Shown: positions 26,345-28,171 of the stretch, one piece after another
Layout: each line of letters starts with the position of its first letter
How positions within the stretch are numbered: the stretch's first letter is position 1
Assembly: GCA_964642155.1 (NCBI GenBank)
Contig: CAZXNT010000002.1
Span: forward strand, 1,801-65,800
Origin: an uncultured Candidatus Saccharibacteria bacterium
GTDB taxonomy: Bacteria > Patescibacteriota > Minisyncoccia > UBA6257 > UBA9933
Reading direction: 5' to 3'
DNA: 64,000 nt
The notes under the pieces: model-generated
Seen by the model: only the letters and a program-made list of their open reading frames with translations
Database searches by the model: none
What the model was told of the DNA's origin: nothing
Made by a program: the position numbers and the translations under genes

Positions 26345-28171
26345 ATGAATCACATTTCATCTTCCACCACCCCCGAGAGAGAGAGAGAGAGAGAGAGAGA
26401 GAGAGAGAGAGAGAGTAAACTCCGCAAATTTAGATTAACTCTTCTTAAAAATTTTTTTATAGCGCTTCTTATTATTTTAGTGTTTATCACATTTTTATTT
26501 CCTCAAGTAGTTAGGGCGGGATGGTTCTCTGAATTTTTTGACGATTTTTTTGACGCTGTTGGCAATGCTGCCAGGTCCGTGTATGAGGCTGTTAGTACAG
26601 CGGTTAATGTGGTTATAAATATAGCAGTAGCGACAACAGAAGTAATCACGGGCAGTGTTTTCGGAAGCAGTTGGCTTAAGGGCGACGGCAGTTGTCGTTG
26701 GGAAAATTTAACTCAAGATGTTTTTGATAGTTATAATGGCGAGTGTGATAATATTAGTATGGCGGGTAGAGGCGTTGGCGGGACGGGTGGAGTTAGTAGT
26801 ATTAATAGTAGTGGTAGCAGTGGCGGCGGGACGTCAATTATTGGCTTTTCCGAAGTCGACGGTTGCGCATATGAGATTCCTTTAACTTTTTATATTCCTT
26901 TTTATGGTGAAGGATATCAAGAGGCGCTTACGTATTATGATGGTTACGCGGAATCTACAAAGACTCTTCCGGCTGGCACTCAACGATATAGTCCTCGTCA
27001 ATTTGGCGGAGACGAAACTAACTGTCCGGTTCCCGATTCAAATGGAAGTTATGCTAAAGCACAAGTTAATACTTGGCATGGGAGTCAAGAGCAATGCGTT
27101 AAGATTAGCTCTTCTTGTAATCAAACATCTATTATTGAAGGGGATAAAATTGCCATTTACCGATTTACTCTGCCAGGCGACAGTACAAATTTAAACAGTT
27201 GGTTTTTAGGTTCCATTAAAAGACAGGTTGGCGATGGTTTTTTAGATGTTTCTACTAACGCTTATTGGTCTGTTCCCGATTCCGAACCAATAGCTATTTT
27301 TCCTTCTTCCCAGATTTGCTCCGGCAATGTCTGTCAAATAAAAGATGCCAGCGCTCCGGAAAATTCTTATCTTGTTTATGCCGCAAAAATAATTGGCAGT
27401 TATACTGCAAGCGGCGATAATATAACGTCTGGTGACGGTCAAATAACTTTTGAATGCCCTTCTAAGCCTAATAAGTTTCTTAAGAAAGACAACCCTGGAG
27501 GTGGTGTCGTAGTACCCGACGCGTATTCTTCAACAGGAAATATGTTTAATGGGGTTTATAAAACTGAAGCTTGTCCTCCCAAAGTTGATTTAAAATTAAA
27601 TGACAGAGACGAACCATATAATGTCACTTATCCCAGAACCGACGTTATACTTAAATGGACGTCTCGAAAGGCAAAAGACCTTATTGCCACTTCTATTATG
27701 GATATGGATAATCTCTGGAGAGGCTTTAAACCAGTGTCCGGAACCGAAACTTTAGGCAAACTTACCAGAGGAACTTCCAACCCCGGACAAGGTAAAAAAT
27801 ACGATTTTTCTATATCTGGCAAATCAATTATAGACAATTCAACATTAACGGATTCCGTATCAGTAACTGTGTTTAGATATCCTGAATGCGAATTCAAAGC
27901 TAACCCCGCTGTTATAGAAGTTCTTCCCGCAACTTCCACGTTGTCCTGGGATTGCAGATATTATGGAGTTTCCGACTCTTCCGCCGATTCCTGCAAAATA
28001 GACCAAGGTATAGGAGAAGTTAATTCAGAATTTGGTTCTAAAGACATCAGGCCCGCCAAAAAAACCACTTATACATTAACTTGTGATAGTATTGATGGTT
28101 CTCAGTCTTATCAAACTTCCGTTAATATAGGTTTTAAACCGAGAGTATATGAGGTAATACCGAGTTATTAA
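26345..28171 (+). CDS. Membrane-anchored, Cys-rich surface protein with C-terminal Ig-like repeats; carries a (GA)20 tract in codons 11-24
   Basis: ATG at 26345. The N-terminus ..TPERERERERERERESKL.. is followed by a transmembrane helix FFIALLIILVFITFLF and a roughly 550-aa extracytoplasmic region (TTYTLTC beta-sandwich-like repeats). There is no alternative in-frame ATG downstream of the repeat. Confidence 0.7.
   Translation: MNHISSSTTPERERERERERERESKLRKFRLTLLKNFFIALLIILVFITFLFPQVVRAGWFSEFFDDFFDAVGNAARSVYEAVSTAVNVVINIAVATTEVITGSVFGSSWLKGDGSCRWENLTQDVFDSYNGECDNISMAGRGVGGTGGVSSINSSGSSGGGTSIIGFSEVDGCAYEIPLTFYIPFYGEGYQEALTYYDGYAESTKTLPAGTQRYSPRQFGGDETNCPVPDSNGSYAKAQVNTWHGSQEQCVKISSSCNQTSIIEGDKIAIYRFTLPGDSTNLNSWFLGSIKRQVGDGFLDVSTNAYWSVPDSEPIAIFPSSQICSGNVCQIKDASAPENSYLVYAAKIIGSYTASGDNITSGDGQITFECPSKPNKFLKKDNPGGGVVVPDAYSSTGNMFNGVYKTEACPPKVDLKLNDRDEPYNVTYPRTDVILKWTSRKAKDLIATSIMDMDNLWRGFKPVSGTETLGKLTRGTSNPGQGKKYDFSISGKSIIDNSTLTDSVSVTVFRYPECEFKANPAVIEVLPATSTLSWDCRYYGVSDSSADSCKIDQGIGEVNSEFGSKDIRPAKKTTYTLTCDSIDGSQSYQTSVNIGFKPRVYEVIPSY
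26375..26414 (+). repeat. (GA)20 dinucleotide microsatellite inside the coding sequence, 30 nt after the start codon
   Basis: Perfect 40-nt GA run at 26375-26414, translated as (ER)6. Confidence 0.95.

Follow-up and report, generated by a model that had tools for sequence, protein, structure and literature searches.

A (GA)20 microsatellite in the signal-peptide coding region of a Patescibacteria surface-protein gene: a candidate slipped-strand switch

The stretch analysed here is 64,000 nucleotides (nt) of contig CAZXNT010000002.1 from an uncultured Candidatus Saccharibacteria bacterium, and is referred to in its full length as the window. One of its genes, positions 26345 to 28171, encodes a 608-amino-acid (aa) secreted or surface protein and carries near its 5′ end a perfect (GA)20 microsatellite. 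This locus probably acts as an ON/OFF switch driven by slippage of the repeat. The gene would be transcribed from its own conserved promoter into a leaderless mRNA starting at ATG 26345, and its product would be exported through the Sec pathway to the envelope or cell surface. In one lineage only, the cytoplasmic n-region of the signal peptide would have gained a 29-codon insertion with the pure (GA)20. This region is presumed to be cleaved off, such that changes of ±3 units would leave the mature protein unaltered. Slipped-strand mispairing at replication that adds or removes 1 or 2 units would shift the frame, bring in a stop after 23–31 residues and yield no protein. The assembled number of units, n = 20, would be the ON state, and the result would be stochastic, reversible ON/OFF expression of one surface protein.

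The GA tract, the reading frame and the start of the gene

The features that carry the argument are as follows.

26345–28171, plus strand: coding sequence of the 608-aa secreted or surface protein (open reading frame (ORF), homologues, profile search, structure model).
26345–26518, plus strand: signal-peptide coding region of 58 codons, with the n-region MNHISSSTTP(ER)6E-SKLRKFR, a hydrophobic core at about residues 30–52 and a VRA/GW cleavage motif (hydropathy, N-termini of relatives).
26375–26415, plus strand: (GA)20 + G microsatellite, codons 11–24, candidate slipped-strand switch (sequence, Tandem Repeats Finder, regular-expression scan; also in contigs L040 and L041).

The tract consists of (GA)20 and a terminal G without interruption, as read in the sequence and recovered by the regular-expression scan; Tandem Repeats Finder called the same interval (26375–26415) with a period of 2, 20.5 copies and 100% matches. 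It begins 30 nt past the first base of ATG 26345 and is read as (ER)6E-S, i.e. ERERERERERERE-S. An earlier reading of the DNA from its letters alone (the sequence-only reading) had described a perfect GA run 30 nt after the ATG, in frame (ON) and translated as an ER repeat; the run is borne out by all three approaches. The longest dinucleotide run elsewhere in the window, which has a G+C content of 36%, is 4 units, and in 200 mononucleotide shuffles of the window the maximum was 7 units (mean of the maxima 4.8). The tract, which is also a 41-nt homopurine/homopyrimidine mirror repeat and the longest homopurine run in the window, is confirmed as real and far beyond chance. The repeat unit of 2 nt is not a multiple of three and lies inside a translated region. 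The tract is pure at the nucleotide level, with no variety in its Glu and Arg codons, which speaks for slippage rather than for selection of an ER peptide.

Reading frames were simulated in silico for n = 14 to 26 GA units. The full-length protein is encoded with n = 14, 17, 20, 23 and 26 (ON). With n = 16, 19, 22 and 25 the ATG frame ends in or just past the tract, after 21–27 aa (OFF), and with n = 15, 18, 21 and 24 it ends in ...RVNSANLD* after 27–33 aa. The expectation that a change of one unit frameshifts the gene thus holds in silico, with the ATG frame truncated after 23–31 aa. In a perfect dinucleotide tract of 20 units high-frequency slippage is very likely, as is established from SSR (simple sequence repeat) biology. 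The first possible start (ATG, GTG or TTG) downstream of the tract is GTG 26480 (codon 46), and it is the only in-frame start for the gene body with n = 16, 19, 22 and 25. A start there would fall halfway through the hydrophobic core, and the product would not be exportable. The earlier claim that no alternative in-frame start exists downstream is accordingly correct in function but not to the letter.

The protein starts MNHISSSTTP(ER)6E-SKLRKF... (in full, MNHISSSTTPERERERERERERESKLRKFRL) and its hydropathy profile has a strong hydrophobic core at residues 28–62 and a weaker one at residues 83–107. N-termini of about 20 relatives, drawn from the first homology search, the exhaustive profile search and the DNA loci, all have a short Sec signal peptide of the form M-(K/R)-x-F-x-x-K-F-F-I-L-F-L-I-L-T...A-x-A, followed by G. 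The window protein aligns to these without gaps from about residue 30 (RLTLLKNFFIALLIILVFITFLFPQVVRA, then GWF), so that its first 29 residues, including the ER run, are extra relative to them. Neither the GA tract nor the 29-residue extension is present in any of the approximately 20 relatives inspected; as these have a short signal peptide and no tract, the tract lies in a lineage-specific insertion of 29 codons in the n-region. As the n-region is a cytoplasmic segment and cleavage of the signal peptide presumably takes place after VRA, in-frame changes of tract length should spare the mature protein.

Upstream of the tract, the following elements were identified.

26292–26300, plus strand: TTATCCACA box, a DnaA-box-like nonamer conserved 44–46 nt upstream of the start in five orthologous loci.
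26310–26337, plus strand: sigma-70-type promoter with –35 TTGCGT (26310–26315), a 16-nt T-rich spacer and an extended –10 TGtTAAAAT (26329–26337) (conservation among orthologues).
26345–26347, plus strand: ATG start, exactly 7 nt past the –10 hexamer, with no Shine-Dalgarno sequence (alignment of orthologues).

Five loci (the window, L001, L002, L026 and L039) could be aligned upstream of the start with a mean column identity of 75%. Common to all five is the order AGTTATCCACA box, –35 (C)TTGnnn, T-rich spacer, –10 TAAAAT/TATAAT, exactly 7 nt and ATG/GTG/ATA, and ATG 26345 matches the other four starts (ATG, GTG or ATA) in position. An extended TGn at the –10 is found in the window and L002. 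The TTATCCACA nonamer is located at ~4638–4646 in L001, ~1352–1360 in L026, ~5743–5751 in L039 and ~4853–4861 in L002, with one mismatch in L002 and one in L026. The promoter identity of 75%, despite an identity of only ~50% among the proteins of the five species, suggests a conserved regulator site, and the nonamer is presumed to be a regulator or UP-type site. The promoter was missed by the consensus scanner because the –35 element matches at only three of six positions.

No Shine-Dalgarno sequence precedes ATG 26345, in contrast to the lipoprotein gene next to it, which has AAGGAGGTG. Over its first 176 nt the mRNA shows less structure than shuffled sequences (z = +2.2), and an mRNA structure involving the tract was rejected since this 5′ region folds worse than the shuffles. 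The conserved promoter geometry, the lack of a Shine-Dalgarno sequence and the unstructured first 176 nt fit leaderless initiation at ATG 26345; the geometry points to an mRNA that would be leaderless or nearly so. Most genes of the window have no Shine-Dalgarno sequence, and many have a TAAAAT/TATAAT-like hexamer 6–9 nt before the ATG (e.g. at 9695, 48468 and 60535), which suggests that leaderless or very short-leader mRNAs may be widespread in this genome.

These findings also bear on whether the tract is translated at all. It could lie ahead of a downstream start, or be an element of the 5′ untranslated region or of the DNA itself (H-DNA/triplex), with a length that tunes expression quantitatively. 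The 41-nt homopurine run, unmatched in the window, is compatible with such an element, and the AGT-AAA-CTC that follows the tract resembles the start of L039, ATA-AAA-CTC, such that the ancestral start may correspond to the 3′ edge of the tract. This explanation is nevertheless very unlikely: the first ATG, GTG or TTG past the tract is GTG 26480, already in the middle of the hydrophobic core, the promoter scan found no promoter-like site between the tract and the core, and the ORF is open and in frame from an ATG at the conserved, promoter-defined start.

Other assemblies, orthologues and the case for a switch

Exact matches to the products of neighbouring genes, 100% identical to the window, were found in the Logan assemblies SRR13723393, SRR13723396 and SRR13723397; the GIY-YIG and pfkB products encoded downstream of the gene gave no such match, and a literature search on the three runs returned nothing. 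Contigs from SRR13723396 and SRR13723393 share the left flank, from the upstream lipoprotein gene across the intergenic region and through the ATG and the next 30 nt, and break off 29 and 28 nt into the GA repeat, respectively (26403 and 26402). All Logan contigs of the same population either stop at 26402/26403 or restart at 28669. A stop inside the tract is interpreted as the expected behaviour of a k = 31 assembly graph where the tract is longer than k. The independent runs confirm the left-hand junction and a tract of at least ~29 nt, and are silent on length heterogeneity.

The right-hand junction of the tract is present only in the window's own assembly, and no exact match was found elsewhere to the 608-aa protein or to a 5′-trimmed version of it starting inside the tract. 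Together with the breaking of de Bruijn assemblies at the tract, this is what would be seen if the GA run had wrongly joined two contigs or if its length were arbitrary. Such an artefact is, however, highly improbable. The left-hand side has the promoter and start of the family and the right-hand side a gene of the same family that lacks both, so that the join unites two halves of one gene and is biologically coherent. The frame is kept across the tract, two other runs contain the left flank with no fewer than 28 nt of GA, and a tract of 41 nt is shorter than ordinary reads.

Comparison with L014 (92% nt identity, 352 aligned codons) gave a ratio of nonsynonymous to synonymous substitution rates (dN/dS) of 0.20 for the gene, and the corresponding value for the neighbouring pfkB is 0.14; these ratios indicate that the body of the gene, whose 608-aa ORF is intact, is under purifying selection. 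The window contains no paralogue of it.

The sequence-only reading had also proposed a search for further SSR tracts. None was found in the 64-kb window besides (GA)20: the regular-expression scan returned no other dinucleotide repeat of at least 5 units and no G or C homopolymer of at least 8, and the longest A or T run is 10. The 5′ ends of the orthologues were surveyed across 38 related loci, and no other SSR was found there. Over these loci as a whole the survey yielded a G8 run in the L001 orthologue, two in-frame G8/C8 runs in the NUDIX and lipoprotein genes of L036, which neighbour the orthologue and were judged incidental, and an intergenic (ACAG)7 in L026. The latter repeat is perfect (L026 529–556) and is closely followed by a terminator-like hairpin. 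It stands ~110 nt upstream of the lipoprotein gene located before the orthologue, and is not part of any convincing ORF.

L001, the closest full-length orthologue (55% aa identity; Hainich groundwater, 0.1-µm fraction), consists of two overlapping ORFs that are split exactly at the G8 run (5039–5046), a +1 frameshift in the Gly-rich linker. Removal of one G (G7) fuses the ORFs to ...WGNSGGVGNGNN..., colinear with the window protein, and the truncated product is recorded on two contigs. As a further disruption associated with an SSR in this family it is suggestive, although this single case may represent either an OFF phase variant or an ordinary frameshift pseudogene. On the former interpretation, the family could have repeatedly acquired frame-shifting SSRs near its 5′ ends, (GA)20 here and G8 in L001, and the candidate phyla radiation (CPR) would then use slipped-strand phase variation for a surface protein; we regard this wider proposal as possible but rather doubtful. 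A further orthologue, P0019, was added by a second homology search with an alignment, and on its contig (L039) the gene is present as several short ORFs in different frames. L039 was used for the promoter comparison only, because this fragmentation was taken as a sign of noisy assembly.

The tract might instead be a recent, selectively neutral microsatellite that slips in a tolerant part of the signal peptide, frameshifted cells being purged and switching bringing no advantage. The restriction of the tract to one lineage, the lack of other SSR loci in the window, the purifying selection on the gene body and the ON state of the consensus all accord with neutrality. Against it, a perfect tract of 20 units in an ORF that must be kept would be a heavy mutational load, and by established SSR biology selection acts strongly against such long tracts in prokaryotic ORFs wherever switching is neither tolerated nor of use. 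The tract moreover sits where changes of ±3 units are harmless, as in proven switches. For these reasons neutrality is considered unlikely, though less so than the two explanations weighed above.

Several observations weigh against a switch. The only other contigs that reach the tract stop within it and none spans it; the number of GA units in the assembly could also be imprecise. For L014, the closest other strain, the sequence starts 467 nt past the tract (residue 256; 91% aa identity), and among 31 related loci from scans of genome and metagenome contigs none combines more than 57% identity with a 5′ end. As the sole SSR in 64 kb, (GA)20 gives no sign of a genome-wide 'phasome', and the G8 frameshift of L001 could be an ordinary pseudogenising mutation. 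Finally, n = 18 or 21 brings TTG 26338 into frame, with the tract read as (RE)n into the gene body. This TTG directly abuts the –10 hexamer (26332–26337), so it should lie, and probably does lie, upstream of the transcription start; outside the transcript it would leave two of the three frames OFF. Transcription and use of this codon would instead reverse the ratio, with two frames ON and one OFF. Taken together, the anatomy is a close fit to a contingency locus, and the reading frame is secured by several independent lines. A slippage-driven switch remains the explanation that we favour, and we infer that slippage at this locus is frequent, that OFF cells exist and that switching is adaptive.

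Protein family and gene neighbourhood

The coding sequence comprises a signal peptide, a hydrophobic or amphipathic helix, a Gly/Ser linker, a Cys-containing central domain and beta-sandwich C-terminal domains, and ends in ..YEVIPSY. The family is characterised by the central-domain motif IYRFTLP...CSGNVC...SYVxYxAK...NKFLxxDN and by [KRQ]E[VI]xP at the extreme C-terminus; in the alignment, the window protein shares the signal peptide, the Cys-containing central domain and the C-terminal motif with members P0001–P0051. By their labels, all members come from Patescibacteria, Saccharibacteria or Paceibacterota metagenome-assembled genomes (MAGs) or from MAGs labelled only 'bacterium', in keeping with the earlier description of the genome as CPR-like. 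The source of the relatives is groundwater 0.1-µm filtrates. The profile search recovered 73 family representatives at E ≤ 1e-30, and showed that giant proteins contain up to 43 copies of a C-terminal module of ~100 residues.

Pfam and NCBIfam gave no significant match to the 608-aa protein. An AlphaFold2 model built from a five-sequence alignment has a pLDDT (predicted local distance difference test) score of 48.5; only the C-terminal module, a beta-sandwich, reaches 70–80. Foldseek searches of the PDB returned only generic tandem Ig/FN3 matches with a TM (template modelling) score of at most 0.2. These matches are usable only as evidence of beta-sandwich domains. A secreted or surface protein with beta-sandwich domains is supported, and the product may be exposed at the surface. 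The Sec-type signal peptide (AxA-type site) and the predicted beta-sandwich C-terminal part, the latter from the low-confidence model, agree with an extracytoplasmic product as previously claimed; the terms 'membrane-anchored', 'Ig repeats' and 'host attachment', also used by the sequence-only reading, derive from inference and from that same model and are to be taken as tentative.

Nearly all of the members P0001–P0051 end in [YWK]-[KRQ]-E-[VI]-x-P-[RQK], for example RVYEVIPSY, DWREVIPR and KYKEVIPR (28144–28168 in the window). No hydrophobic segment follows this motif, for which the model library gave no match; it might act as a signal for sorting or processing.

Two features bound the gene.

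26246–26271, plus strand: intrinsic terminator of the upstream lipoprotein gene, with a 9-bp G+C-rich stem and a T run (terminator scan, sequence).
28175–28212, no strand assigned: 17-bp palindromic hairpin just past the stop codon, terminator-like on the minus strand according to the scanner.

The strong terminator at 26246–26271 makes the gene a transcription unit of its own, and the hairpin at 28175–28212 probably marks the end of that unit. Between the gene and pfkB is an ORF for an 89-aa GIY-YIG nuclease (28373–28642, in the context 28172–28697; Pfam E = 3e-15). L014 and L001 have no such ORF at this position, and in them pfkB follows the gene after ~65–105 nt. Just past the GIY-YIG ORF, at 28669, the Logan contigs of the same population resume. 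This ORF looks like a lineage-specific insertion, possibly one that is mobile or present in multiple copies.

Upstream, a block encoding a methyltransferase, an 894-aa protein and a NUDIX protein (window 19940–24178, L001 1–3591) is 80% identical at the nt level between the window and L001 and is inverted relative to the gene; the 894-aa protein has a weak, sub-threshold GT9-like match. The possibility that the lipoprotein gene and the gene with the tract form a conserved two-gene cassette was rejected here, as the lipoprotein encoded at 25806–26231 is not homologous to that of L001, L026 and L036. The inverted block and the non-homologous lipoprotein indicate that the neighbourhood is rearranged in the lineage of the window.

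An 87-nt segment at ~25693–25779, upstream of the lipoprotein gene, is 85% identical to 19013–19099, which lies upstream of the ORF 19087–19917, itself with a weak match to a 'putative adhesive domain'. The segment may be a duplicated 5′ or promoter region. Further along the window, the octamer AAAGTTTA forms arrays of 3–4 copies on the plus strand (54152–54167, 56627–56650, 57845–57868 and 59076–59099), and 7 matches were counted where shuffles give an expectation of 0.86. The array that was read in sequence (59076–59105) is directly upstream of an ATG, and the arrays could be a translation or transcription signal shared within a gene cluster.

Comparison with known systems

SSR phase variation has so far been documented mainly in host-adapted pathogens. 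Most members of the CPR/Patescibacteria are uncultured; their genomes are tiny, and a life attached to other cells is presumed for them. An episymbiotic lifestyle of the source organism is assumed from its phylum. Surface variation in the CPR is known mainly from diversity-generating retroelements, in which mutagenic retrohoming by a reverse transcriptase varies surface proteins. The locus described here would resemble these in giving rise to population heterogeneity in CPR envelope proteins, whereas the retroelements change the sequence and involve neither an SSR nor an ON/OFF state. Neither a reverse transcriptase nor a template repeat was noticed close to the gene, though no search aimed at them was made. 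If the locus is a switch, the SSR would provide the CPR with a second, cheaper bet-hedging mechanism, and fluctuating selection would act on an uncharacterised, phylum-restricted family, whose members could for instance serve as phage receptors or in host contact. The purpose of switching might be to evade phages or to vary the interaction with host cells. As de Bruijn assemblies break at the tract, such loci would be systematically lost or truncated in MAGs.

In the opa genes of Neisseria, which encode beta-barrel outer-membrane adhesins at 4–11 loci per genome, CTCTT pentamers are found in the signal-peptide coding region. As at the present locus, the SSR is in the leader peptide, in-frame changes are harmless and out-of-frame changes switch the adhesin off. 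Unlike here, the unit is a pentanucleotide and the genes form a multi-copy family.

The searched literature contained no report of SSR-based ON/OFF phase variation in the CPR, the nearest case being a hypervariable 9-mer repeat in a Gracilibacterium (PMC6851277). In that genome (Gracilibacteria, BD1-5, CPR) the gene, which has PTD repeats, breaks assemblies, and slipped-strand mispairing is discussed by the authors (PMC6851277). Its 9-nt repeats are in frame and change the length and sequence of the product, unlike a 5′ tract that shifts the frame between ON and OFF (PMC6851277).

The closest parallel is oipA of Helicobacter pylori, in which CT dinucleotides are repeated within the signal-peptide region and ON and OFF states are documented in 536 sequences (PMC10564699). 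Searches of Pfam, NCBIfam and homologues gave no homology to the H. pylori Hop-family beta-barrel outer-membrane proteins, so the resemblance is one of mechanism only; the two proteins are unrelated, the H. pylori one belonging to a diderm, host-associated pathogen. The CT patterns of oipA include 5 to 11 units and are often interrupted (PMC10564699), in contrast to the 20 perfect units found here, and the mRNA of the present gene, unlike that of oipA, appears to be leaderless. Variation has been demonstrated in hundreds of H. pylori isolates, whereas here the layout is known from sequence alone. The repeat class is nevertheless the same as in oipA (and also hopZ, sabA, sabB and babB), CT being GA on the other strand. 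In both cases the tract is placed where the signal peptide of an exported surface protein is encoded, at the 5′ end of the gene, with ON/OFF frameshifting predicted through slipped-strand mispairing (PMC10564699). A pure, non-triplet SSR in the signal-peptide coding region of an exported product, with stops close by in the shifted frames, is the contingency-locus architecture that the sequence-only reading had recognised, and it matches the layout of the oipA-type switches of H. pylori (PMC10564699).

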